The notes beneath the pieces are model-generated. The model did not search any database and was not told where the DNA came from. It saw only the letters and a list, made by a program, of their open reading frames with translations. This document shows positions 3,520-61,285 of a stretch of DNA of 64,000 nucleotides, piece after piece. This DNA is from a virus. Taxonomy: Duplodnaviria > Heunggongvirae > Uroviricota > Caudoviricetes. The position numbers and the translations under genes are program-made. How positions within the stretch are numbered: position 1 is the stretch's first letter; each line of letters opens with the position of its first letter. The stretch spans positions 1 to 64,000 of IMG/VR virus record IMGVR_UViG_3300010429_001387; one strand, 5' to 3'.

Positions 3520-4436
3520 TACTTAATCCCCAGCATACTTTTTAGTTTAACAACATCTTCAGTTTCAATTTCATCATCTTGCATTAACTCGTTTAAATCT
3601 CCAATAATTTTCAAATACTGATATTTTGCTAAAAACTTAAAAGCTGCATTAGCATCATTCCAATCTTTTGCCAGCTTAACATCCTTTAACAACTCATCGG
3701 GAGATTTTTCTGGCATCTCAATGCTGCGAGCATCAATCCAAATTTTGCGTAAATCATAAAGTTTTTGAATATCAGCTTCAATTTCTTGTAATTTCGCTTT
3801 AGCTAATTGTAAGAATTTCTGTCGTTGGGCTTTTGACATGTTTACCATTGCTTTATGCAACGTATCAAAATCAATCGTATCTCGTTTTAATTCGCCTAAC
3901 AACATATCTGCTTCTTTAAAGGAATCTTGCATTCCCTTTAAAATCCCAGAATAATCTTGCATGGGGTCATAATCCGGTGGAACAATTCTTGGACCTTTAA
4001 TCCAAGCATTTGTTAATAGATCATAAACTCCTTCAGATCGATAGTCCTGCAAAGGATTAAACTGTATGGATATTTCGATCGGATGCTGACCAATAAAAGC
4101 ATCTAAGTCGGTTTGATGTTTTTCAAACCACTTACGAACTTCTTTAGCATCTTTTTCCGTCCATGGGGTTTTTGGAATTATATGCACATCAATATCTGTA
4201 TCTTCTGTATATTGATTTGTTGTAATTGACCCCACTATGTGAATTTGGTCTGCAAGCTCCTGAATATTAACAGTCGGATGTTGTTGCATTACTTTGTATA
4301 TCTTAGCTGCAACAGTATCTCGGAGCTTGTAGATACCATTTGGTTGTTTATCCCAAACCTGCAAATCCAATCCGGCTCGAGGATAATCGAGAAGTGATTC
4401 TTGGATTAGTTGGATTTTATTAAAAAGGTTTTGCAA
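3519..4436 (-). CDS. Pol-beta-superfamily nucleotidyltransferase
   Basis: 'VGSITTNQYTEDTDIDVHII' matches the hG[GS]x9-13Dh[DE]h NTase signature. An alpha-helical C-terminal half follows. The stop codon is shared with the downstream paralog. Confidence 0.6.
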   Translation of the reverse strand: MQNLFNKIQLIQESLLDYPRAGLDLQVWDKQPNGIYKLRDTVAAKIYKVMQQHPTVNIQELADQIHIVGSITTNQYTEDTDIDVHIIPKTPWTEKDAKEVRKWFEKHQTDLDAFIGQHPIEISIQFNPLQDYRSEGVYDLLTNAWIKGPRIVPPDYDPMQDYSGILKGMQDSFKEADMLLGELKRDTIDFDTLHKAMVNMSKAQRQKFLQLAKAKLQEIEADIQKLYDLRKIWIDARSIEMPEKSPDELLKDVKLAKDWNDANAAFKFLAKYQYLKIIGDLNELMQDDEIETEDVVKLKSMLGIK

Positions 4437-4456
4437 GGAATATTCTCAACTTTTAA

Positions 4457-5020
4457 TTATAAATAGTCTCGTTTAACTGTTTGTTTTAACTGTTGTTCAG
4501 GGACAGGATTACGATAACAATCAAAATATCCTCCAACATGTGCAGGTGCACCTTGGAGAGATGTTAGGTTGTTGTGAGAACAAGAAAAACTGTCTCCAAC
4601 ATGTGCAGGTGCACCCTGGAGAGATGTTAGGTTGTTGTGAGAACAATAAAAAGTTCCGCTTACAAATTGCGGTGCTCCCTCAAGAGAGGTTAATTTATTA
4701 GCATTACAATAAAAACTTCCTCCAACATGTGCTGGAGCACCTTGGAGGGATGTTAGGTTGTTGTGAGAACAATCAAAAGATCCTTTTATTTCTTTAAATT
4801 TTACAGGAAGTTGTGGTAAATTTAAACGATAGAGATTTACATCTCCATTACAGGAAAAAGTCCCATCAGGATTTTGTATCCACTTTTGTTCTTTCTTTAA
4901 ACGTTCAATTGTCTGTTTAATACGTTCTTGATGTTCCTCTTTCGAGATCGGCTGGAATGCCGAATCGAAATCATCTTCCTCGTAGATGTGGATTAAGTTT
5001 TCGAATAATTGATAATACAT
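4457..5020 (-). CDS. LRR-like tandem-repeat protein, paralog A (5 repeats)
   Basis: Five 66-bp tandem repeats encode 'NNLTSLQGAPAHVGGSFxC'. It shares the N-terminus 'MYYQLFENL...DFDSAFQP' and the C-terminus 'VPEQQLKQTVKRDYL'. Confidence 0.6.
   Translation of the reverse strand: MYYQLFENLIHIYEEDDFDSAFQPISKEEHQERIKQTIERLKKEQKWIQNPDGTFSCNGDVNLYRLNLPQLPVKFKEIKGSFDCSHNNLTSLQGAPAHVGGSFYCNANKLTSLEGAPQFVSGTFYCSHNNLTSLQGAPAHVGDSFSCSHNNLTSLQGAPAHVGGYFDCYRNPVPEQQLKQTVKRDYL
4520..4790. repeat. Tandem 66-bp coding repeats (5 copies). Related arrays lie at about 3100-3260 (3 copies) and, degenerate, at about 1900-2200
   Basis: Repeated 'catgtgcaggtgcaccttggagagatgttaggttgttgtgagaaca...' units are visible directly in the sequence. 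Confidence 0.8.
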
Positions 5021-5883
5021 TATTTCATGATCTTTAACAGGACTTTAGGCTTATCAGTTGTAATGAATTCAAAAATAACAGCGTCCTTAACTTCTTTAGT
5101 TTCAGTATGCCAATACCCTGCTTTTTGAAGTCCTTCCGCAACAAGATTAGCTATATCTTCGGGATGATCAATCGTAACTTCTTCATTGATGGATTCTTTG
5201 ATAAGTGAAATGGCTTTAGGTACTAATACCATTTTAAGATACACCATCTTAACATCTTCATCAGGATCAAGTTTAGAAGGATCGACAAAATCTTCCAATG
5301 AACTAAGAGCATCAATCATTTCATCATCTGTGGGCCATTCATTAGGAATCTTACCTGATTCAACTGCATCTCGAACAGCTTTGTTATCGTCTGGAGTAAG
5401 TTCTTCCATCTCACCCACTAGCTCAAGAACACCTTCAGTTAATGTTTTAATTACTTTCTCTTCATTGTCATCTTTGTTAGGGACTTTACCTTCTTTAACA
5501 ACCTTCTCGACTAATTCAGAAGAACAAAATGTACATTTACTTTCATTACTCCGAAATGTCTTAAAACAGGCATTACAAAGATAAAGATCAGACTTCTTAT
5601 TTTCTTTAGCCGCAGCTTTAGGCTTGGGATTTTGTGTATCTTTATCCGGAACTTCTTTCCAAGTCTTGTCATTTTTGAGCTTCGGCTTTGCTTTAGGACC
5701 ATTTAACTCCTGGTCAGAATAGTCTTCCATACCAATTTCTTCAGGAGTATTTTCGGGTTTTTTATCAGCAGGAGTCTGTTGTGGAACTTCAATAAGCTCG
5801 ATCTTTGTTTCTTCAATATCTAATCCAGCTTTCTTAAAAGCGTCATCCTCTCGCATTATATTAAGCAATCCCGTGAATTCCAT
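5020..5883 (-). CDS. Acidic protein with a zinc-ribbon and the 'EGKVPNKDDNEEKVIKTL' motif
   Basis: Contains 'CNACFKTFRSNESKCTFCSS' (CxxC...CxxC). It carries the same 16-aa motif, on a near-identical 47-bp DNA segment, as the giant ORF at 16361..20101. Confidence 0.55.
   Translation of the reverse strand: MEFTGLLNIMREDDAFKKAGLDIEETKIELIEVPQQTPADKKPENTPEEIGMEDYSDQELNGPKAKPKLKNDKTWKEVPDKDTQNPKPKAAAKENKKSDLYLCNACFKTFRSNESKCTFCSSELVEKVVKEGKVPNKDDNEEKVIKTLTEGVLELVGEMEELTPDDNKAVRDAVESGKIPNEWPTDDEMIDALSSLEDFVDPSKLDPDEDVKMVYLKMVLVPKAISLIKESINEEVTIDHPEDIANLVAEGLQKAGYWHTETKEVKDAVIFEFITTDKPKVLLKIMK
5447..5493. repeat. Dispersed 47-bp near-identical segment. Other copies are at 18513..18559 and 19815..19861
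   Basis: 'ttaattactttctcttcattgtcatctttgttagggactttaccttc' occurs three times in two different genes, with one mismatch in the third copy. Confidence 0.85.
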
Positions 5884-5886
5884 GTT

Positions 5887-6372
5887 TTACTCCTTTTCTT
5901 CCAAGTCATCAATAAGTTCAACCTTCTCACCATTCATGTCTGACCAGAAAGTTGACCCTCCTTTACCCTCCCAATCGATCAAATCCTTGCATCGATCATA
6001 TACCTGTCCACCACGACACCAAAAGGCTACTTCATGTCGACGACCTTTCTTGGCTCGTGGTTGCAAAGCTAAAGGATGCAGACAGGCAAATCGCATATTA
6101 AGCAACTTTTGCACTGAATCCGCAACACATTTTTCATCAAGGATCTCATCCAGGATCGCTAATGCACGTTTATCCTTTGGCAACACCTTTGCACCATTGG
6201 CAACAGCTGCATTAAATAACCTTTCCACCCCAGTTGCTGGCATTTTATCAGAATATGATCCTAAAATCCTTAACAAGCGTTTAAACAATTTAAGATCTTT
6301 AGCTTCTAAAATCCTTTTAGCTTTACTCATTGGTATTTTCCTCATTTCCACAAATATCATTAATGCTTTCAA
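5887..6372 (-). CDS. Hypothetical protein (161 aa)
   Basis: ORF on the coding strand. The overlapping plus-strand ORF 5873..6406 is judged spurious. Confidence 0.45.
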   Translation of the reverse strand: MKALMIFVEMRKIPMSKAKRILEAKDLKLFKRLLRILGSYSDKMPATGVERLFNAAVANGAKVLPKDKRALAILDEILDEKCVADSVQKLLNMRFACLHPLALQPRAKKGRRHEVAFWCRGGQVYDRCKDLIDWEGKGGSTFWSDMNGEKVELIDDLEEKE

Positions 6373-7198
6373 TCAATGCTTCAATTGTTGCTTGCGTTTG
6401 TCCTAATGTTGGATAAAATATGTTCTGAATTCGTTTTAATCCAACAACAGATTCTTCAACTTGATCTACAACAAACGGATCATCAACTTGTATTGATAAT
6501 TGATGCTGAAGATCATAGTCAACTTGAGCTTCAAATATCATATCAACATCTCCCATTTGTGAGAGATATCGACAAGCAGCTAAGCATTTGCCAGGAAGAA
6601 CCTTTTCATTGATTTCATTATCGAGAATTTGAGATTCAAGAATATCCAATTTTCCTAAATCCTCCTCCTCATTCTCAATTAAATCTTCGAGTAAAGAATT
6701 AACTGCATTTTCCATGTTTCCTAATAGGACTGTGGGATCTGATGCAGTGAGATTCTCTTTGAGATCAAAACATTGTATCCATCGAGTTGCTATTGTGTTA
6801 AGAGCTTGTAGAATAGGCTTTTGGAAATGTTCGACAATTGCATCTCTTAATCGTTCTTTACGAGATTCGAAAACATCTTCATCTTGATCCGAATCCAATA
6901 ATGGATATGATAAATCAAGATATGAATTCTCATCTAATTGCCCATCAAACATAGAATTAAAAGAAGCCCAATGTTCATGAGGAACATGAATTTGGAGTTG
7001 GTCCTCAAAGCAGACTGTCCGCATTTTGTCTCCTTCAAGGATTTCAATGTTCCATTTGTTCTTTTGACGTTTGAGATCACCCAATGTAGCCTTGACTGCT
7101 CCCATTTGAGATGGAAGGAAAGAAATAGCACTCATTGTAGTTGTCTCGTCTTTGCGAAGCGATTCGCCCATATTTGTTGAGAGATCATAGAAATTCAT
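6323..7198 (-). CDS. Acidic hypothetical protein (291 aa)
   Basis: Long ORF with D/E-rich stretches. It overlaps its neighbours by a few codons. Confidence 0.5.
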   Translation of the reverse strand: MNFYDLSTNMGESLRKDETTTMSAISFLPSQMGAVKATLGDLKRQKNKWNIEILEGDKMRTVCFEDQLQIHVPHEHWASFNSMFDGQLDENSYLDLSYPLLDSDQDEDVFESRKERLRDAIVEHFQKPILQALNTIATRWIQCFDLKENLTASDPTVLLGNMENAVNSLLEDLIENEEEDLGKLDILESQILDNEINEKVLPGKCLAACRYLSQMGDVDMIFEAQVDYDLQHQLSIQVDDPFVVDQVEESVVGLKRIQNIFYPTLGQTQATIEALIESINDICGNEENTNE

Positions 7199-12834: not shown

Positions 12835-14340
12835 TTACGATCCTAACACATACCCACTTGCCAGGTTTTGAATCGCACCAGCACAGAACAGCCCAGCGTT
12901 GATCGTCTTGAAGGCTGCAGACGACATGAAGCCTTTCTGAGAGATCAAATCACTGGTAGTCAGTGTTGGCGTTGCGAACAGCGGAATATATGGACAGTAA
13001 ATGAAACCTGCATGCATATAGTCCGGTCCACGGAAACCTAACGTGTAGTTATTGGTCGATTTGAACGGATTCTGGATAACAGTTACCTGATTGTCCAGGA
13101 CACCAATCTTAATCGGACCAGTCGGAATTTGGACCGTAGGAGCAGGAGCAAAATGATCCTTGCCCAGCTGCTTGATAACTCGAGCAACATTGTTTCCACA
13201 AACCATGAAAGTCGCGATACCTCTCTTGGTCTTATCGAAGATGTTGTTCGAGCCTTCTTGGATACGATCCAGGAATTCCAGTTTCTTGAACACCCAAGCT
13301 TCACCCTGCGAAGGACGAGCATCCCAAGTCGTTGGAGCAGTTGCAGCATCACTTGATGCCGCAGCAGTATCAATATAGTCCAATCCACGTTGATCAATTG
13401 TGAACTTGATTTCCCCACCCAAATACTTCACAAGTTCACTCTCGAGATCAATACCGTGAGCCTTCTTAAGATCGATCTCTGCACCCAGCGACCATTTCGC
13501 TCTCAGAGGGAAATCCTGGGCAGTAACAGCCGACTGTGAAACCTCGATGTTCGCCTCGGGCACACCATCCAGATTGCCGTATGCATCAGCCGGAAGATCA
13601 TACTGATAGTCATAACTAATCAGGATTGTTGATCCAGAGGTTGATCCGGAAACTGTAAAGGCGTACACACCGGCCGCAGTAATGCTCCCTGTACCAGTAA
13701 TGTAATCACCAGTGATGTTACCATCCTCATCTGACGTACCCAGTTCAGTGTAAGTTGAGCTAACCTTCTGCTCAATCACAACATTTTCCAGGTTAATCAG
13801 GCCAGGAGCAAACGAGCAAGTTCCAGACTTCGAACCATCGCCAGCACCAGACACCGTTTCACGCTCAACGTGAGCAATCGCATACCGACGCTCAGATTGA
13901 CTTTCCGGATGTCCTGTCGTTGAAGACAACATGGTTCCACCTGAACTAACTTCACCCTTGCTGGTACCATACTTAACATCCAGATAGAACACAGCCGCAA
14001 TTCTACGATCAATTGCCTGAACGATAGAAACTTCATTCAGCACAAGTGTCGGCAGCAATGCAGCAATGACCGGCAGCTGAATACCCAAGAAGCTGATATT
14101 GTCTTCAGTTGTAGTCTCGAACAGACGACTGTTCTGCTTCACGCCACATTCGAGGATGGCATTGTACAGACACTGAGCAACGTTTCGCTTCTCGTGCAGG
14201 GTAATAGGACGATTGTGCTCTTCGAGCATGTACTTCTCAACAGATGCCAGAAGGGGTTTAATCTTGGGATGTTCCATGAGGGAATCCCGAGCAGCATCCA
14301 TCTTCCGCATTTCATTTTGAATCATTTCTTGCAGCTTCAT
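12835..14340 (-). CDS. Major capsid protein (candidate)
   Basis: 501-aa ORF directly downstream of the protease/scaffold gene, so size and order fit a T4/SPO1-like head module. No defining motif was found, so this is a positional call. Confidence 0.45.
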   Translation of the reverse strand: MKLQEMIQNEMRKMDAARDSLMEHPKIKPLLASVEKYMLEEHNRPITLHEKRNVAQCLYNAILECGVKQNSRLFETTTEDNISFLGIQLPVIAALLPTLVLNEVSIVQAIDRRIAAVFYLDVKYGTSKGEVSSGGTMLSSTTGHPESQSERRYAIAHVERETVSGAGDGSKSGTCSFAPGLINLENVVIEQKVSSTYTELGTSDEDGNITGDYITGTGSITAAGVYAFTVSGSTSGSTILISYDYQYDLPADAYGNLDGVPEANIEVSQSAVTAQDFPLRAKWSLGAEIDLKKAHGIDLESELVKYLGGEIKFTIDQRGLDYIDTAAASSDAATAPTTWDARPSQGEAWVFKKLEFLDRIQEGSNNIFDKTKRGIATFMVCGNNVARVIKQLGKDHFAPAPTVQIPTGPIKIGVLDNQVTVIQNPFKSTNNYTLGFRGPDYMHAGFIYCPYIPLFATPTLTTSDLISQKGFMSSAAFKTINAGLFCAGAIQNLASGYVLGS

Positions 14341-25192: not shown

Positions 25193-25348
25193 TTAGATCA
25201 CCTTATTAGATTTTTAGAAACAATCACATCACCAACAACATTAACCAATACAACACAATCTTTGATAACCTTTGGTAGATAAGAATTCGTGATTGCAGTC
25301 TTTCTCATTTCACCAAGAATTCTTGTTGTTAAATCAAGTTTGCTCATG

Positions 25349-25795
25349 TTACCATTCTTCCTCTTCTGGCAACTCATCCTTTTTCATTTTACATTCGACT
25401 TCAGGTTCATCTTCTGGACCAACCATTTCTTCTTTTGGCTCTTCCAGATTGCCTTCAAGATTTCCCGAAGCTGCATCAATATTAGCATCAACAGTGTTCA
25501 TAAGATATGTTTCAATATGTTCTTCTTCAATCTGATCCACCAAAATATGAAACAAATCTATCGTTGCCTCTTTGAATCGATCAAGAGCCTCAAGTCCTTC
25601 ACCATCATTTGTCAACTCTTCAATCTTATCAAACACTTCTCTTGGAAGATCGCCAGTTTTGTGTTCTGGCTCATCGACCCCCTGGACTGGAGTATCTGGT
25701 GTATCCGAAACTGGCGATTCCTCGTCTCGTGCCATTTCTTCTTGAACCACTTTATTTACATTTTCAAACAACTTTTCATAGTTAGCTCTGGTCAT
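25349..25795 (-). CDS. Acidic hypothetical protein (148 aa)
   Basis: D/E-rich ORF. Confidence 0.45.
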   Translation of the reverse strand: MTRANYEKLFENVNKVVQEEMARDEESPVSDTPDTPVQGVDEPEHKTGDLPREVFDKIEELTNDGEGLEALDRFKEATIDLFHILVDQIEEEHIETYLMNTVDANIDAASGNLEGNLEEPKEEMVGPEDEPEVECKMKKDELPEEEEW

Positions 25796-25933
25796 CCGTG
25801 ATCTCCTTTTTGATTTGGTCTACTAAATATATTTGAAAATCCTCTTTTTCGACACCTTGATTTATAAGACTCATTTTCATGCTTTTAACAGCTAATCTAA
25901 AATTCTGTTTCTGCTCTTTACACAATCGACTTT

Positions 25934-55059: not shown

Positions 55060-56004
55060 TTATACTGTGCTCCCAAAAATAGCTTTGCAGAAAAGTGAAC
55101 CTAATGTTGCCTTGCCTCCATAAAAAACATTAAACGAAAATATCTGGATTAGATTCGACAGATCTTCTGCTTCATTGAGATTGTCGGCTGTTACCAGTTT
55201 CTTATACAGATACCCTAAGATGGCTTTGCGGATGTTTTCAGGTTCTCCATCCAAAGCATCAAATTTCTGCAATATCAATTGCCATTTTTGTTTTCGAACA
55301 TCCGGAGCAGCATACATTAATTTACAAAGTTCAATAATTTCAACATCCTTTTCTGTGCCCTTCAGAAGCAAATTGATTGCGTCATCCAGATTATCAACTT
55401 CCATAACTGTTTCTAATGCAACAATTGCTGCTCTTGGTGAACCTTCAGATGTGACCGCTACAGCATCAAGAATTTCAGGTTTAACTTCAATACCTGCCTT
55501 CTTAACAACATTATCCAACAATTGACGAATCTTACCTTCGGACAAAGATGCCATTTCAAATTTAGTACATCGATTACGAATTGTAGGAATGATATTCTTT
55601 GGTTCGGTTGTGCAGAAAATAAAATAGCAATCCCGAGGATGATCTTCTAAAATCTTTAACAAACATTCTTGAGCAGAGGCAGTGAGTTGGTGAGACTCGT
55701 CAAAAATATACACTTTTGCATTACCATCAATAGTTGATTTTTGAGCATTTACCGTAATTTCTCGGATATTATCAATACCTCTTGTATTAGCCGCATTCAG
55801 TTCAAAAACACTGTTTTCTGAAGCACCAAATTCTCGAGCTAGAATCCTAGCAACAGTTGTTTTTCCACATCCAGAACTTCCAGAAATAAGAATAGCGTGA
55901 GGATGCTCTTCAGATTTTAACATCTTCTCCATTGCTTTGACTGTTGCAGGATTTCCTACAATTTCATCAAGCGTATCAGGACGTACTTTTTGATATAGAC
56001 TCAT
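55060..56004 (-). CDS. Clamp-loader AAA+ ATPase (gamma/tau- or gp44-like)
   Basis: Walker A 'ISGSSGCGKTT', Walker B 'VYIFDESHQL', sensor 'CTT', and 'SEGSPRAA'. Confidence 0.6.
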   Translation of the reverse strand: MSLYQKVRPDTLDEIVGNPATVKAMEKMLKSEEHPHAILISGSSGCGKTTVARILAREFGASENSVFELNAANTRGIDNIREITVNAQKSTIDGNAKVYIFDESHQLTASAQECLLKILEDHPRDCYFIFCTTEPKNIIPTIRNRCTKFEMASLSEGKIRQLLDNVVKKAGIEVKPEILDAVAVTSEGSPRAAIVALETVMEVDNLDDAINLLLKGTEKDVEIIELCKLMYAAPDVRKQKWQLILQKFDALDGEPENIRKAILGYLYKKLVTADNLNEAEDLSNLIQIFSFNVFYGGKATLGSLFCKAIFGSTV

Positions 56005-56222
56005 TATGTTCCTCTCTTTAAAGTTTCCGGCTTATTCAACAAACCTTCCCAAGTTTTATCTGTTGGGGTAATAACAAGTGATCTACGACGAACTTTGTCA
56101 ATTTGAAATTCAACATTCCCAATGAAAAACTTCTGTCCTATTACAAATACCGGCATACCCTGCATTGCCTTTTCATCATCTTCCGTTATGATGGGATTAA
56201 ATTCTCTTGTTTCCACATTCAT
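56004..56222 (-). CDS. Hypothetical protein (72 aa)
   Basis: Short ORF coupled to the clamp loader. Confidence 0.35.
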   Translation of the reverse strand: MNVETREFNPIITEDDEKAMQGMPVFVIGQKFFIGNVEFQIDKVRRRSLVITPTDKTWEGLLNKPETLKRGT

Positions 56223-56223
56223 T

Positions 56224-56601
56224 TTATTTCTCCAAAGCTTTTAACCAAGACAAATTTACGGGAATGTATGTTGGAGGCTTAACCCACTTACCTGTAGTAT
56301 CAAAATGGCCTCCTGCTTTCGTCATATTAGATTCATGGACTTGCCGAAAAACTTCATCAAAGGGCAAACCATGTTCCACTGCTGCACCATCAACAACATA
56401 CTTCAAATCCGCAAGAGCATCAGCAATTTCCACAATATTGCCTTCCGATACAGCTTTGCAATACTCAGAAAATTCTTCTGCTATTAATCTTGCTCTTCGG
56501 GCAAAAGCATGTCGATCAATTTGACGTGGGGATTCTCCTATTGGAATCCCCACCATCTGATGGAATTCTTTAACCATTTCAAAAGTAGTCATATTATTCA
56601 A
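56224..56601 (-). CDS. mazG: MazG-like nucleoside triphosphate pyrophosphohydrolase
   Basis: 'RLIAEEFSEY' (EExxE) and 'DALADLKYV'. 125 aa. Confidence 0.55.
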   Translation of the reverse strand: MNNMTTFEMVKEFHQMVGIPIGESPRQIDRHAFARRARLIAEEFSEYCKAVSEGNIVEIADALADLKYVVDGAAVEHGLPFDEVFRQVHESNMTKAGGHFDTTGKWVKPPTYIPVNLSWLKALEK

Positions 56602-57620
56602 TCCTCATTTGTAAATCTAATTATACGTTGAACAACCAATTCTATTTCATTTAACTCATGCCCCCAGATAATTAAAGTGTTATATCCTTCCTTTAAAAAA
56701 TGTTCTTTTCTTTCTTTTTCATGTTCTTCATTTGTTAATCCAGTTTTCTCCTCAGAATGCCAAAAGTCACCAAAAAATTCTATCAATAGAGGTTTTGTTT
56801 TATGTACATAATCTGGACAACGACCATTTATTATTAATTTTCCATCACCTACAAAATCCCATTCACCTGGAAATAATTTGTTAAGTAATTTTTTAACAAA
56901 CTTTTCATACCTATTTGGCATTACTTTATGAGATTTCATCTGTTTTGCTATATATTCCGGATTTTTCCAACTCTTTTTCGCATGTGGCCTATTTTTCTTT
57001 CCAATTTGCTTCTTTGATTCTTCAGAAATTTTATGCCTATAAGAAGGATGATTTTCTCCTGACAATTCTTTTCTACTCAATTTACATATTGGGCAATTAC
57101 AATCTTCTTTATGACCTAATTCTTGAAGAGTTTTTCCTTTCTTAGCTTTACTGACTTTTTCAGCTATCTCAGGATTTTTCATACAATTATTTTCCCCTTG
57201 GGACCACAAATGTGGTTTTCCTCTTCTTGACAAACCACTTTTCTTTGCAACCTCAGGATTTCGCATAGGATTATTATTATTCCCAATATACTCTCCACGT
57301 TTTGCTTTACATTGCCCACAATTACAATTTTCAGGATGTTTTTCTGCTCGTTTATTTAAACAAAACGTACAAGGGCAATCTTTTTTATGTTCTGAACGAA
57401 TATGTATGCCTCGTTTTGCTGAACAACTAACACATTTACAATCTTCTTTATGTTCTATAAAATCTCCTCTTTTATTTCTACAAGCAACACACATACAATT
57501 TTCTTTATGGATTATATTTCTTAATTGATGATACAGTATGTATTTATTTTCGGAATTTGTAACATGCTCTCCACATCCACATGCACATAAAGGAAGATTT
57601 TCTTTATTTTTATTATTCAT
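56598..57620 (-). CDS. Vsr/EDxHD-like endonuclease with an N-terminal zinc-finger repeat array (homing-endonuclease candidate)
   Basis: C-terminus 'CPDYV...LLIEFFGDFWHSEE...EGYNTLIIWGHEL' parallels Vsr 'PDIV...VIFVHGCFWHG...GWRVLIVWE'. The N-terminus has at least four 'C.C..C.(A/N)KRG' repeats. Confidence 0.5.
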   Translation of the reverse strand: MNNKNKENLPLCACGCGEHVTNSENKYILYHQLRNIIHKENCMCVACRNKRGDFIEHKEDCKCVSCSAKRGIHIRSEHKKDCPCTFCLNKRAEKHPENCNCGQCKAKRGEYIGNNNNPMRNPEVAKKSGLSRRGKPHLWSQGENNCMKNPEIAEKVSKAKKGKTLQELGHKEDCNCPICKLSRKELSGENHPSYRHKISEESKKQIGKKNRPHAKKSWKNPEYIAKQMKSHKVMPNRYEKFVKKLLNKLFPGEWDFVGDGKLIINGRCPDYVHKTKPLLIEFFGDFWHSEEKTGLTNEEHEKERKEHFLKEGYNTLIIWGHELNEIELVVQRIIRFTNED

Positions 57621-57629
57621 TTTATTTAT

Positions 57630-58643
57630 TTAATCCATACAAATTTGATGACAAGATGGACAAATACTATAATGTTTTGATATTTCCCCTGCTGTTTTCA
57701 TTAAACTTGCAGACGAAATCCTAGAAAGCTTATTAGAATGTGAAGAAACAAAAGTAAAATTATTCCACAAATCATATGCCGTCTCTGGACCTTTACCATT
57801 ATTCGAGGCTACAGCAGCATCAACAATTTCTTTCTGTGTGCGAACAGGAATCCCAAACCTTCGGAACATGCTTGCAAGTGTCTCATCAAGCTTTTCACCA
57901 AGCTTTACTTCAGTCAACTTTCGAATCCTGCCGAACTCATTACTTAAAGCGGAAAAAGCAGACTGTGTATGATTCATTACCCAACTTTGCAAATCTGAAC
58001 CATCATCATTTTTATGCGACCATTGCCCAATATTCTCCGAAACAATTGCCCCATTCGAGCAAATCTGCCTAAAAACATATGGTGTAATTTCGATCTTATG
58101 CTCCCCAATAATAGAATTCTGCATGCGAATTCCACCATACAACATATCACCAGGCATCGGTTCAAACTTCTGATCAACCACCACCGAAACCGTTGAATAG
58201 TCAAGTCCTGTATAAACTTGATGATAGCCTAATACTCGCTGAATTCCAACACTACGCTCAATACTTTCCATCATCTGCATATTAGAAAAGTATTCTGAAC
58301 GACTTGCAGAAGCTCCAACAATATTTTCATCCTTAACAAACAAACGAATCTTTCCCTTTGTTCCACCCGAATACCAATAATTGAGATGATGTGATAGAAG
58401 CTCCCAAGGACAACGTTTCACATACGATTCCGGAATCCCAACTAGCCGAGCAACATCGGCCAATCCTGACGACAGCATTTCATACTCCTGTGCTGCAAAT
58501 GCCATGATTGGAGGACCTTCATTTTTCTTCCAGAAATTAGTCTTGCTGTCTGTATCCAAATCAAGATCAACATGTGTGATATTTTCAGTTGTTTCAAGTG
58601 TTTTAACGACTGCTTCTTTGTTCATTAATGCTAATTCTGACAT
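57630..58643 (-). CDS. Hypothetical protein (337 aa)
   Basis: Long ORF between the polymerase and the endonuclease. The C-terminus has 'CPSCHQIC'. Confidence 0.45.
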   Translation of the reverse strand: MSELALMNKEAVVKTLETTENITHVDLDLDTDSKTNFWKKNEGPPIMAFAAQEYEMLSSGLADVARLVGIPESYVKRCPWELLSHHLNYWYSGGTKGKIRLFVKDENIVGASASRSEYFSNMQMMESIERSVGIQRVLGYHQVYTGLDYSTVSVVVDQKFEPMPGDMLYGGIRMQNSIIGEHKIEITPYVFRQICSNGAIVSENIGQWSHKNDDGSDLQSWVMNHTQSAFSALSNEFGRIRKLTEVKLGEKLDETLASMFRRFGIPVRTQKEIVDAAVASNNGKGPETAYDLWNNFTFVSSHSNKLSRISSASLMKTAGEISKHYSICPSCHQICMD

Positions 58644-58645
58644 AT

Positions 58646-61285
58646 TTAGTCTCCTACTTTTATAAAATCATCCAATAAGATATTCTTTTTTGTTTCGTTT
58701 TCTTTAACTACAACATATAGATTATTATCAATCTTCTTTAAAGGTTGTAGATCAAACCAACATGATTTTCCAATTTCCCAGGATACGGTTAATGGAACAA
58801 TCCCTTGCCATTCAAATCTCTTGGACGTCATAATCTCAGTTACGATTTGAACAACTTCAGCAGCCTCTTGTGGTACGGTATCAATAGTAAGGCTATCGTG
58901 AATCTCAAACAATGGTTTAGATCGAAGTTTCCTCTTAGCAAATTCTTTCTCAATTTTTATTATACTGTCCAGCATCAAATGAAACGCTGTTCCCTGGATC
59001 GGATAATTACAAATCTTGTTTATGTTCAGAGGACCATAACATCGGAATCCTGACATTCCCTCAATATAACCATTGCAAACGTACTTTTCAGTATTTTGAA
59101 TTTGCCAAGCCTTAACACCTTGGAATTCTCTCCAGAATTTCTCTTGTACTTCTTTAATGTGTTCTTTTCGAAGCTTGGGGAATTTAGGAGCAATTGTTTC
59201 CCAAATAGCCCCATAAAAGGAGGCGAACACAAAGGAGTTCTTCGCATCAAATCGCTGTTCAGAAGTGATATCAGATTCTGGAATTAAATAGATTTCCGAG
59301 GACCATCGACGATGAGTATCAACTCCATTAATAATTTGATGAGTTAATTCTGTATCGCGTGAATCCATAGCAATGACTTTAACTTCCAAGGCATCAAAGT
59401 CAACTTCCAACAAGATGTTGCCAGGAGAAGCTTTAATAACTCTACGGAATTTCTTGAGCTCTTTATCATGTTTAAAAATATTCTGTATTGAAGGATTGTC
59501 GGCAGAAGATCTAAAAGTATCCACCGTATTTAGGTTGAATGTTGGATGCACAAACCAGTTCTTATCTATCAATCCTCTGTAATTCTTAGCTCGTTTCAAC
59601 AAAGATGTGCATTTACGAAATCGCTGAACCGCATTAACTAACTTTTTAACTTCCTCATCTCTCGTTGCAGCAATAATCTTTTCAAGAGCATCAATATCAG
59701 TTGACAGTGTTCCCTTAAATGGTTCAACCTTGTAATATTTATAAAGTATTGTACTTAATTGTTGTGGAGATTCTGGATTAAACTCTTTTTTAGCATATTG
59801 TTCGTATGCTGGAATTCCTTTACAAGTTCGCATTTCAACTTTACGTTGTTCAGCTTCTTGTGAATATTCTAGTTCTAGCGATCTCATATCTTCTTCGGAA
59901 ATTGGAACACCACGTTCCGTCAAATTCACAAGAGCTAATGCTCCAGTTTGAAACAATTGACTAAATTCTGCTATTCGATTTTCTGAAATAATGCGTGGAT
60001 ATTGATATTCTAATGCCATCCGAGTATATCGAGCATCCCACGAATTATAATGAAAAATAGCTTCTAATGGAGCACGAGCCATATCCCGAGCATCAACCAT
60101 GCACTTATAATCATGTCCGGTCATCTCAAAAACTTGGAAAGCTAATCCTGTCGTTCCTGTATTCCCATTTAGAACATGAGCCCCGATCATTGTATCATAA
60201 ATATGATTTATTTCTTCGGTGTTAACCTCCACCAACTCTTCAAAATTGTAAGATGCTTGCTTAAAATACACACGATTCCAAATCTCTTCCATATTAAGAT
60301 TTTGAACCGCTTTGGGAGCAGGACTTCTTAAGAATTCCCGAATTGCATTAAATACATGAGATTTTTCTTCTGGATTGAAAAATACTCTTCCAGTAGTGGG
60401 GTTTACAACATCAACCGGAATGAAATATCCTATATTGACAGCATTTGATAACGCTACTGAAAGCACACGAGCATTTCTATGAAACGGACTTAATGTCGTG
60501 GTTTCATAGTCATAAGCAACGTGTGTTTTGCTGTTGCCAAGCATTTTTAATGTAGATTGAACTTTGTCAACTGTATCTAAAAGAATATTCCCTTCTTTAG
60601 TTAAAGGCTTTGGAAGTGGTTTATTAAGATATGATAATGCTTTCGCAACATCAAATGCTAATAGATTTTCATCGTCTGGTACGTCTGTTCGATTTTTTCT
60701 TCGCAAGAAAAATGAAGGATGGTATGCCCCCACAACCCAGCAATTAAATTCCTCGCTGGGAACAACTCTCCCATGCATCATTTTAGCACTAAAAGAAGAA
60801 AAGTTGCAAGCATCTGGAACTTTTAAAACAGCGTTAATTGCTTGCTCACCCAAACAGATAATCAATTTGGGTTGAACTTCACGAATATCCTGAATTAAAT
60901 TTTTGCGACATGCTAATATTTGTTCTTTGGTCGGATCTGTATCTTTGAAACACGAGACAATGTTGGTACGAACACAATCTTGATCTAAATTCAACCCCAC
61001 ATATCCCAACTGTCTTTTCAACAAATCTCCGGAAGGACCAACAAATGGGATTCCTAACGTATCTTCTTGTCGTCCTGGACATAACCCAACAATCAATATC
61101 CCTGATTGACCTTTTCCGTATCGTTTGATTCTTGGATTTCGACAATTCTTAGACAATCCACAAGTACTACAATCCAACACAATATTCCTAGGAGCAGAAG
61201 ATTTCTGACTCCTGCTCCTAGGTTTCGCCGTGGTAGCGGATATTTCTTTTCGATCTATTTCAAAAAACGATCCTTGTTGTCCCAT
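58646..61285 (-). CDS. Family-A DNA polymerase with an N-terminal UDG-family-4-like domain
   Basis: N-terminus 'GLCPGRQEDTLGIPFVGPSGDLL' plus 'GAYHPSF' are UDG-4 motifs A and B. The C-terminal half has Pol A-type motifs ('DFDALEVKVIA', 'RRWSSEIY...KNSFVFASFYG', 'HDSL'). Confidence 0.7.
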   Translation of the reverse strand: MGQQGSFFEIDRKEISATTAKPRSRSQKSSAPRNIVLDCSTCGLSKNCRNPRIKRYGKGQSGILIVGLCPGRQEDTLGIPFVGPSGDLLKRQLGYVGLNLDQDCVRTNIVSCFKDTDPTKEQILACRKNLIQDIREVQPKLIICLGEQAINAVLKVPDACNFSSFSAKMMHGRVVPSEEFNCWVVGAYHPSFFLRRKNRTDVPDDENLLAFDVAKALSYLNKPLPKPLTKEGNILLDTVDKVQSTLKMLGNSKTHVAYDYETTTLSPFHRNARVLSVALSNAVNIGYFIPVDVVNPTTGRVFFNPEEKSHVFNAIREFLRSPAPKAVQNLNMEEIWNRVYFKQASYNFEELVEVNTEEINHIYDTMIGAHVLNGNTGTTGLAFQVFEMTGHDYKCMVDARDMARAPLEAIFHYNSWDARYTRMALEYQYPRIISENRIAEFSQLFQTGALALVNLTERGVPISEEDMRSLELEYSQEAEQRKVEMRTCKGIPAYEQYAKKEFNPESPQQLSTILYKYYKVEPFKGTLSTDIDALEKIIAATRDEEVKKLVNAVQRFRKCTSLLKRAKNYRGLIDKNWFVHPTFNLNTVDTFRSSADNPSIQNIFKHDKELKKFRRVIKASPGNILLEVDFDALEVKVIAMDSRDTELTHQIINGVDTHRRWSSEIYLIPESDITSEQRFDAKNSFVFASFYGAIWETIAPKFPKLRKEHIKEVQEKFWREFQGVKAWQIQNTEKYVCNGYIEGMSGFRCYGPLNINKICNYPIQGTAFHLMLDSIIKIEKEFAKRKLRSKPLFEIHDSLTIDTVPQEAAEVVQIVTEIMTSKRFEWQGIVPLTVSWEIGKSCWFDLQPLKKIDNNLYVVVKENETKKNILLDDFIKVGD

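Follow-up and report, generated by a model that had tools for sequence, protein, structure and literature searches.

A probable free-standing EDxHD/Vsr-like homing endonuclease with an N-terminal arm of Cys/His modules in the replication module of an uncultured phage

What does a Vsr-like endonuclease gene do in the replication module of an uncultured phage: does it repair mismatches, serve the phage in some other way, or move itself? We addressed this question for one gene in a 64-kb window (the whole stretch of phage DNA analysed, 64,000 nucleotides), which the initial annotation had put forward as a free-standing homing-endonuclease candidate of the Vsr/EDxHD type. The gene and the slot in which it lies are:

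56598..57620, minus strand: complete endonuclease gene, 340 aa and stop, with ATG at 57620-57618 and TGA at 56600-56598 (ORF list)
56223..57629, minus strand: variable slot from the stop of orf337 to the start of orf72, holding here the endonuclease gene and a MazG/PRA-PH-like gene

The reading frame is intact in the ORF list of the window, and three independent pipelines predicted the gene identically on four contigs. As initially annotated, it is flanked by the MazG/PRA-PH-like gene (56224..56601) on one side and by a 337-aa ORF (orf337), positioned after the family-A DNA polymerase gene (polA), on the other; RecA/UvsX-like and SbcCD-like recombination genes of the same phage lie shortly downstream. 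Its GC content is 30.5%, and its GC3 of 0.167 is the lowest among the window's 82 ORFs. An E-value scan with Rfam found no group I or II intron in 55500-59000, so the gene is free-standing. HMMs of both the nuclease domain and the Cys module described below revealed no second copy in the window or in the relatives' loci. The MazG gene has its ribosome-binding site (GAGGA) in the 3′-terminal part of the endonuclease gene, and the packing is tight, at a spacing of 5 nt. No Shine-Dalgarno sequence was found for the endonuclease gene, the hairpin seen at the start of other Vsr-like free-standing genes is absent (folding z -0.74), and promoter and terminator counts at its start are no higher than those of shuffled sequences; this lack of a Shine-Dalgarno sequence, a regulatory hairpin and an own promoter counts against homing.

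Comparing synteny, as had been suggested for this site, we found that the order polA-(orf337)-clamp loader-gp32 is kept in all eight independent relatives recovered, none of which carries the endonuclease gene (0/8); conservation at this site in all relatives, which the initial annotation had named as a refutation, was not observed. It is missing at the matching site in L004/L008, L009, L026, L027, L028, and L029, where the slot contains an unrelated 80-aa ORF (L004, IMGVR_UViG_3300001335_000576), a hydrophobic ORF (L026), or a 67-aa Cys-rich ORF (L029), or is empty (L009, L027, and L028), and in the distant relatives L005 and L010-L015 the clamp loader adjoins polA. In L029, a NUMOD3-HNH gene, distinct from the endonuclease gene, occupies another of the junctions in the replication module. 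Since unrelated small ORFs come and go in this hypervariable slot as well, presence or absence alone is no proof of homing; it also counts against homing that the endonuclease gene, like other slot ORFs, could have come by an illegitimate route. The four endonuclease-bearing contigs are 100% identical in DNA and thus speak to neither spread nor selection, nor do they offer a near empty allele from which the target could be read. Among annotated phages, neither megablast of 8 kb nor tblastn of the full protein gave a match, and the C-terminal domain alone, at a permissive E-value, gave weak tblastn hits only; the nearest cultured polA is ~26% identical to that of the window.

We consider that the gene is probably a selfish, free-standing homing endonuclease of the I-Bth0305I type (EDxHD/Vsr-like), a lineage-specific insertion into a hypervariable slot of the replication module, with EDxHD and intronless homing understood as defined previously (PMC3239194, PMC2677866, PMC2988022). 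The candidacy proposed by the initial annotation is supported by the fold, the catalytic residues, the absence from relatives, and the sharing of Cys modules. The low GC3, the size of the protein family, the scattered paralogues described below, and the NUMOD3-HNH gene of L029 likewise speak for the behaviour of a mobile element. A domesticated or dual-use nuclease, of unchanged family and chemistry and retained for the benefit of the phage, not for purely selfish homing, seems rather unlikely to us. Such an enzyme could keep out competing phages at co-infection, stimulate the recombination or amplification of loci close by, or break down host DNA; free-standing phage endonucleases do cause marker exclusion (PMC2988022), and SegB is reported to aid immune evasion via amplification of anti-defence loci (PMC13096335). 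The MazG ribosome-binding site within the endonuclease gene and the 5-nt packing also indicate a gene integrated into its operon. However, its absence from all eight relatives argues against an important core function, and nothing in the sequence tells dual use from plain homing.

The nuclease itself occupies the C-terminal part of the protein, with the following domain and predicted catalytic codons:

56601..56975, minus strand: Vsr-like (EDxHD-type) nuclease domain, aa 216-340
56904-56906, minus strand: E239
56811-56813, minus strand: D270
56778-56780, minus strand: E281
56757-56759, minus strand: H288
56712-56720, minus strand: E301/E303

This domain has a Vsr-like fold, and the nearest solved structure is that of I-Bth0305I, the EDxHD prototype. 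The string that had been read as the Vsr core, 'PDYV...IEFFGDFWH...ER...GY..LIIW..EL', is present in the C-terminal part of the ORF and aligns significantly with both Vsr and I-Bth0305I. The latter (3R3P) is the top PDB phmmer match of the protein; a profile search gave 3R3P at E 1e-6 and Vsr (1CW0) at E 5e-6; and hhalign reached a probability of 96% against full-length I-Bth0305I (E 3e-9, residues 166-260) as well as against Vsr. The PADLOC 'homing endonuclease' (HEase) model matches the protein (E 1.2e-5), the Pfam DUF559 model (PF04480) gives no match, and the domain is modelled by AF2 at pLDDT 95-98. The family to which the protein belongs has >360 members, mostly composed of NUMOD3 and nuclease, and three paralogues sit at three unrelated free-standing sites on one 80-kb phage contig.

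The arrangement of Asp and His on which the initial reading depended is intact. D270, in 'PDY' (I-Bth0305I D196, Vsr D51), is conserved in 136/136 family members, H288, in 'FWH' (I-Bth0305I H213, Vsr H69), in 135/136, E239 (aligned to I-Bth0305I E170 and Vsr E25) in 133/136, and E281 in 136/136. The last Asp of EDxHD (D222; Vsr D97) aligns to E301 in the I-Bth0305I alignment or to E303 in the Vsr alignment, with D/E at column 301 in 62/136 members and at column 303 in 67/136; that it is Glu here, and that only about half of the family has an acidic residue there, counts against the assignment. Position 320 is Gly here as compared to Glu in 109/136 family members, and all other invariant or near-invariant family residues are kept. 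The protein might be an inactive relic, in which the nuclease has decayed and the protein is kept as a sequence-specific DNA-binding protein, for instance one that regulates the replication operon. Phages often carry degenerate homing endonuclease genes, and both the loosely conserved last acidic residue and the lack of own expression signals are compatible with decay, but the ORF is full length, the family residues are retained except at position 320, and the nuclease domain is modelled with the high pLDDT given above, which together make a relic very unlikely. That the gene encodes a genuine Vsr enzyme nicking T:G mismatches is extremely improbable: although hhalign aligns Vsr at 96%, F286/W287 match Vsr F67/W68, and JGI labels relatives 'very-short-patch-repair endonuclease', a name that many family members bear by automatic annotation, the protein reaches 16.1 bits with NCBIfam vsr (TIGR00632), for which the cutoff is 97.85, has no match to Pfam Vsr (PF03852) at E<=0.1, has no counterparts of the zinc ligands C66, H71, C73, and C117 (the aligned positions being D285, then a loop free of His and Cys, then H321), misses the ~21-residue W86 segment, and bears a long modular DNA-binding arm, while relatives are without the gene and a motif search of all frames of the 64-kb window found no cytosine-5 methyltransferase motif IV (PCQxFS-type). 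The automatic repair-endonuclease labels on such phage genes are thus misleading, and the nuclease is one more free-standing EDxHD/Vsr-like member, as expected in phage replication modules.

The N-terminal arm is, in our view, a more useful result than the nuclease. The modular region comes first in the domain order and the nuclease is C-terminal; along the protein, the arm is laid out as follows:

57522..57596, minus strand: C-x-C-G-C-G module (LCACGCGEHV...YILYH), aa 9-33, a putative small zinc knuckle
57291..57509, minus strand: four tandem H-x3-C-x-C-x2-C-x-x-K-R-G modules, aa 38-110 (regex and shuffle test)
57126..57272, minus strand: two NUMOD3-like basic helices (NPEVAKKSGLSRRGK, NPEIAEKVSKAKKGK), aa 117-165 (by resemblance only, with no Pfam match)
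57066..57113, minus strand: fifth H-x3-C-x-C-x2-C module (HKEDCNCPICKLSRKE), aa 170-185 (regex and shuffle test)
56982..57065, minus strand: NUMOD3-like helix, aa 186-213 (weak Pfam NUMOD3 match)

The initial annotation had counted at least four Cys repeats within an N-terminal region of 110 aa. The repeats are real and their number is exceeded, with five modules and one CxCGCG, and the stated length proved too short, since the putative DNA-binding region, including the NUMOD3-like helices, reaches ~aa 215. The five H-x3-C-x-C-x2-C modules start at aa 38, 57, 78, 95, and 170, the four in tandem having a period of 17-21 aa, and 19 of the 20 Cys of the protein fall in aa 1-200. Five CxCxxC motifs were reached in 0/200,000 shuffles of aa 1-200, the shuffle maximum being four. 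Each module closes with a short predicted helix beginning at the third Cys, in a repeat region that is poorly modelled by AF2 (pLDDT 47-68). The C-x-C-G-C-G motif itself (aa 12-17), repeated one to six times in 13/136 family proteins, lies in a module modelled at pLDDT 82-87 with a beta bridge. Within aa 117-165, helices are predicted at 122-134 and 150-160 in the AF2 model; this segment is also found in a 186-aa relative (P0096), which has a counterpart of the fifth module at the equal position. The Pfam NUMOD3 model (PF07460) matches aa 186-206 weakly (E 0.033; 14.6 bits as compared to a gathering cutoff of 20.4), and of 17 close homologues, 11 carry NUMOD3, with E-values as low as 4e-16.

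The Cys module is rare, occurring in 47 of 1.84 billion representative proteins. In a consensus built from 179 modules in 54 proteins, His is found at -4 in 167 modules, R at +9 in 87%, and G at +10 in 75%; the scaffold consists of H, three C, K+6, K+8, R+9, and G+10, interspersed with hypervariable positions at +1, +3, +4, and +7. No Pfam, NCBIfam, or PHROG model matches the repeats over aa 30-115, and the literature searched gave no description of the Cys motif or of a new NUMOD type. In its H-to-G spacing and its period, the module resembles NUMOD3. The possibility of a Cys-substituted NUMOD3 was rejected (hhalign probability 0.2%, 164 Cys modules compared with 58 NUMOD3 modules).

Besides the protein described here, the HCCC array is joined to GIY-YIG/SegE, HNH, EndoVII, and DUF559/Vsr-like nuclease domains, and it is placed directly after HNH domains inside portal-protein inteins. 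This attachment to four other homing-endonuclease nuclease types and to intein-borne HNH supports a DNA-targeting role for the repeats, in line with the DNA binding proposed initially, and the module appears to behave as a portable targeting module across nuclease families. From the sequence, we infer that the arm may bind zinc and DNA. Given the rarity of the repeat, its invariant His-Cys3 signature, its basic helix, and its occurrence with several nuclease types, the module is a good candidate for a new nuclease-associated DNA-binding module. A more specific proposal, which we regard as doubtful and on balance quite unlikely, is that H-x3-C-x-C-x2-C-(K/R)-x-K-R-G-E constitutes an undescribed zinc-stabilised DNA-reading repeat of 17-19 aa, occurring in arrays of two to seven on at least four unrelated nuclease folds. 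The alternation of conserved and hypervariable positions would be compatible with a re-programmable, module-by-module recognition code. If this reading were true, proteins with such arrays would be natural 'zinc-finger nucleases'; were the module to bind zinc and read DNA, it would add to the known NUMOD toolkit and might interest builders of compact targeted nucleases. The present endonuclease, with five copies, is a sensible test case.

For the homing endonuclease that we favour, cleavage, target, and mobility are inferred from the analogy with I-Bth0305I and the free-standing endonucleases of T4. The N-terminal ~215 aa would form an extended modular DNA-binding arm, composed of one CxCGCG knuckle, five HCCC modules, and about three NUMOD3-like helices, which may extend over a long target site. 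The C-terminal ~125 aa would act as a metal-dependent Vsr-fold nuclease, in which D270 would hold Mg2+, with H288 as the general base and E239, E281, and E301/E303 in assisting roles. At co-infection, cleavage would fall on the allele of a related phage that is without the endonuclease gene, perhaps somewhere in the conserved polA-orf337-clamp-loader region and at a distance from the insertion that might reach hundreds of bp. The RecA/UvsX-like and SbcCD-like genes of the phage might then repair the break from the endonuclease-carrying genome, and repair would copy the endonuclease gene, probably with the adjacent MazG-like gene, into the recipient.

Among known systems, I-Bth0305I (Bacillus phage 0305phi8-36; PDB 3R3P) is the closest both among solved structures and in PDB sequence searches. 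The two proteins have in common E...PD...IE.xG..WH...GY...EL and a C-terminal helix ending in F, and both are without the zinc site and the long helix of Vsr. In I-Bth0305I, too, the layout is reversed, the modular DNA-binding region preceding the nuclease (PMC3239194). In contrast, it is encoded by a group I intron in recA and carries two NUMOD2/HTH motifs, whereas the gene described here is free-standing and its product has Cys/His mini-modules and NUMOD3-like helices. The 'x' of EDxHD is Asn in I-Bth0305I and Phe here, the last acidic residue is Asp there and Glu here, and the domains are only 26-31% identical.

In terms of genomic setting, Hef of phage U5 and the Hef-like proteins of T4-like and Campylobacter phages, which have been assigned to the Vsr-like family (PMC3239194), are likewise free-standing amid conserved phage genes of DNA metabolism. 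The 'Hef-like homing endonuclease' of Campylobacter phage Los1 aligns by hhalign at 89% (E 2e-6), and its gene also adjoins gp32 and a clamp-loader gene; however, this protein is 744 aa long and carries its nuclease centrally, unlike the C-terminal nuclease here, and by tblastn the similarity is very weak (E about 1-4). The metagenomic Vsr-like free-standing homing endonucleases of 'fractured genes' (Dassa et al. 2009, PMC2677866) have the same Vsr-like catalytic domain. Phage-like and of marine or environmental origin, their genes belong to loci of DNA synthesis and repair, and some have tandem NUMOD3 N-terminal to the nuclease (PMC2677866). These genes lie between the two halves of a split intein, within a host gene that is broken, and as a rule are preceded by a hairpin, whereas here the neighbours are intact and folding gave no hairpin.

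E. coli Vsr (PDB 1CW0/1VSR) is alike in its fold and core catalytic residues, E25/D51/H69 corresponding to E239/D270/H288. Unlike Vsr, the endonuclease has neither the zinc site nor the intercalating helix with W86, shows no Dcm partner in the motif search of the window, falls far below the family cutoffs, and has a modular DNA-binding arm, which Vsr lacks. Regions of the I-TevI type (zinc finger, NUMOD3 helix, and HTH) and engineered zinc-finger nucleases are alike in principle, placing a weakly specific or non-specific nuclease on a string of modules. Their modules differ from the H-x3-C-x-C-x2-C unit of 17-19 aa, which has no Pfam zinc-finger match; a C2H2 finger is much longer. NUMOD modules, for their part, are shuffled among homing endonuclease families (PMC2677866, PMC3239194).

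Within the window, the endonuclease gene forms an intact reading frame of 340 aa with an ATG start. It was predicted by three pipelines on four metagenomic contigs, and the DNA of all four is 100% identical to the window. As the initial annotation proposed, the gene lies between a polymerase-adjacent ORF and a MazG gene. In transcription order, the neighbourhood is as follows:

58646..61285, minus strand: family-A DNA polymerase (polA) with an N-terminal UDG-like domain
57630..58643, minus strand: orf337, 337 aa, phrog_1362 (no assigned function)
56598..57620, minus strand: endonuclease gene
56224..56601: MazG/PRA-PH-like pyrophosphohydrolase gene

These are followed by a 72-aa ORF (orf72) and genes for a clamp-loader-like AAA+ protein, a gp32-like ssDNA-binding protein, a RecA-like recombinase and SbcCD-like proteins. 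The polymerase matches Pfam UDG (uracil-DNA-glycosylase superfamily) at aa 56-199 (E 1e-24), fused to exonuclease and polymerase domains, and the same fusion is found in the relatives L027-L029. orf337 has no Pfam match, and its C-terminus bears a CPxCHxxC motif.

The Vsr motif string reported for the C-terminus is present in the 340-aa ORF. A Pfam search of this protein gave nothing significant, only a weak NUMOD3 match (aa 186-206, E 0.033), while the top PDB sequence match in a direct search was the catalytic domain of I-Bth0305I (3R3P, E 0.01). The C-terminal ~115 aa are well conserved in 17 homologues with very different N-termini, and a profile of homologues matched 3R3P at E 1e-6 and E. 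coli Vsr at E 5e-6. The profile comparison suggested in the initial annotation gave an hhalign probability of 96% both for full-length I-Bth0305I (E 3e-9, residues 166-260) and for Vsr; the same method gave 89% for the annotated "Hef-like homing endonuclease" of Campylobacter phage Los1. The PADLOC "homing endonuclease" model matched at E 1.2e-5. An AlphaFold2 model built from a 136-sequence alignment reached pLDDT 95-98 over aa ~200-340, for which Foldseek ranked 3R3P first in the PDB (probability 1.0, TM 0.71) and Vsr next.

The EDxHD family is defined by E170, D196, N208 (x), H213 and D222 of I-Bth0305I, whose Vsr counterparts are E25, D51, H64, H69 and D97 (PMC3239194).

Counterparts of the I-Bth0305I residues in the window protein, with conservation over 136 family members
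E170: E239, kept in 133/136
D196: D270, kept in 136/136
N208 (x): F283, F in 127/136
H213: H288, kept in 135/136
D222: E301 or E303 according to the alignment; an acidic residue in roughly half of the 136

Four of the five positions thus agree, and the fifth is a conservative case whose counterpart (E301 or E303) depends on the alignment. The nuclease is best classed as a further representative of a family that is already known.

A genuine Vsr enzyme is very unlikely. The protein scores 16 bits against the curated NCBIfam vsr model (cutoff 98), its alignment shows no counterparts of the Vsr zinc ligands C66, H71, C73 and C117 or of the inserted helix bearing W86, and a motif search of all frames of the 64 kb detected no catalytic motif of a cytosine-5 methyltransferase. 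I-Bth0305I likewise lacks these zinc ligands and the W86 helix (PMC3239194), a feature that the window protein shares. On this evidence, the JGI name of its relatives, "very-short-patch-repair endonuclease", is best taken as a fold label.

The N-terminal arm contains five H-x3-C-x-C-x2-C units (Cys modules), starting at aa 38, 57, 78, 95 and 170, which exceeds the at least four repeats originally described, and a C-x-C-G-C-G motif at aa 12-17. The first 200 residues hold 19 of the 20 cysteines, and none of 200,000 shuffles of this region reached five CxCxxC motifs. When aa 30-115 were searched exhaustively by phmmer against 1.84 billion representative proteins, only 47 matched at E<=1e-3, each with 2-7 module copies. 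Across 179 modules from 54 proteins, a His stands four residues ahead of the first Cys in 167, the third Cys is followed by K/R-x-K-R-G-E (R 87%, G 75%), positions +1, +3, +4 and +7 are highly variable, and repeats are most commonly spaced by 17-19 residues. Each module is predicted to close with a short helix from the third Cys, with a model confidence of just 47-68.

The module is attached to HNH and Endonuclease VII domains, follows GIY-YIG/SegE-type domains as a C-terminal array (e.g., P0141) and precedes DUF559/Vsr-like domains as an N-terminal array in the layout of the window protein (e.g., P0150); in the T4-like portal proteins P0139 and P0175, it comes directly after the HNH domain of an intein. 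Because it occurs across four homing-endonuclease folds, always at the place of the DNA-binding region, these sequences indicate that it is very likely a DNA-targeting module, and putative zinc binding by the His-Cys3 set is a reasonable inference. Profile comparison showed no relationship to NUMOD3. The module matches no model in Pfam, NCBIfam or PHROG, and no description was found in the searchable literature, whose coverage does not extend to subscription journals. The related protein P0096 (186 aa) aligns with aa ~148-340 and consists of a single Cys module between two NUMOD3-like helices, followed by the nuclease, so that the window protein resembles this design with CxCGCG and four Cys modules added N-terminally. 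The array sets the protein apart as a variant and is the part worth pursuing. The C-x-C-G-C-G motif, followed ~14 residues on by (F/Y)-x-x-G-H, occurs 1-6 times in 13 of the 136 family members (including P0002, P0009 and P0012; aa 9-33 of the window protein) and could represent a second module that moves among nucleases; weak Pfam matches to DUF6527 arise from it in three homologues.

Phage relatives were recovered via the polymerase, clamp loader and orf337, and the window proteins were mapped onto their loci. The backbone polA-clamp loader-gp32-o179-RecA is conserved, whereas the polA-to-clamp-loader interval is not.

Content of the interval, with amino acid identity of the neighbours
L005, L010-L012 (40-46%): empty or about 230 bp
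L009, L027, L028 (48-60%): orf337 alone
L004 (66-84%): orf337, an unrelated 80-aa ORF, orf72
L026 (68%): orf337, a hydrophobic ORF, contig end
L029 (47%): orf337, a 67-aa Cys-rich ORF
Window: orf337, endonuclease, MazG, orf72

No trace of the endonuclease gene, its nuclease domain or the Cys module was found in any relative's locus; conservation at this position in all relatives, which the initial annotation had named as contrary to its reading, is clearly not seen. L029 has instead a 175-aa NUMOD3-HNH gene between clamp loader and gp32 (6199-6726; orf337 there 47% identical), indicating that the replication module gathers different free-standing nuclease genes. A main caveat to a homing reading is that small accessory genes in general gather at the slot between orf337 and orf72, which is a hot spot for them. 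The endonuclease gene (GC 30.5%) has the lowest GC3 of the window's 82 ORFs, 0.167 (mean 0.281, sd 0.060), and the adjoining MazG gene an ordinary 0.278. Two outliers elsewhere deviate upwards: GC3 is 0.59 in a 170-aa ORF (25289-25801, plus strand) whose neighbours are almost all minus-strand, and 0.47 in a 501-aa ORF (12835-14340, minus strand; window mean 0.28). orf337 is kept at 47-69% identity where the relatives' polA is 49-67% identical; more distant relatives lack it, and polA there abuts the clamp loader. In the distant relative L016, the polymerase match (3956-6765) is in two pieces, 3956-4954 and 5380-6765, separated by about 425 bp that may represent an intron, intein or small gene inserted within polA.

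Judging from sequence, the most likely target of the predicted endonuclease is the empty allele carried by related phages, where the cut would fall at some point in the conserved stretch from polA to the clamp loader, and recombinational repair would then copy its gene into the cut genome. MazG, adjacent to it and missing from the slot in every relative examined, may have been acquired alongside the endonuclease gene or undergo co-conversion with it, possibly dragged along during copying.

The endonuclease start is 9 nt past the orf337 stop, behind an A/T-only spacer without a Shine-Dalgarno sequence, and the MazG ATG (56592) comes 5 nt after the endonuclease stop, with its ribosome-binding site GAGGA within the last endonuclease codons (56590-56610). 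Searches for a hairpin (z -0.74) or an intron at the locus found neither, and sites resembling promoters or terminators were not in excess. Given this tight packing and these absences, the gene is probably cotranscribed with the replication operon and weakly translated.

The nuclease belongs to a wider family of more than 360 members, mostly of 100-230 aa with NUMOD3 repeats before the nuclease. Three paralogues (P0003, P0114 and P0080; L018, L020 and L022) occupy unrelated, free-standing sites on one 80,329-bp phage contig, JGI Ga0480573_000206: among baseplate genes, at the tail-tube/baseplate junction and at QueF/QueC. The QueF/QueC site (7-deazaguanine pathway) is near a polA gene. Immediately upstream of P0003, two ORFs (419 and 141 aa; L018:3271-4989) correspond to one 572-aa ORF in L019 (1653-3371), so the adjoining ORF is either split or varying between samples. 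The T4 seg, mob and Hef enzymes home without introns, cut away from their own genes and co-convert flanking DNA (PMC2988022). The patchy presence of the endonuclease gene and the several free-standing sites of its family match the behaviour of the T4 seg and mob genes and of Hef; like the annotated gene of Campylobacter phage vB_CjeM_Los1 (L025:800-3034), which encodes a 744-aa "Hef-like homing endonuclease" and has gp32 and a clamp-loader gene immediately downstream, the window gene resides in a phage replication neighbourhood.
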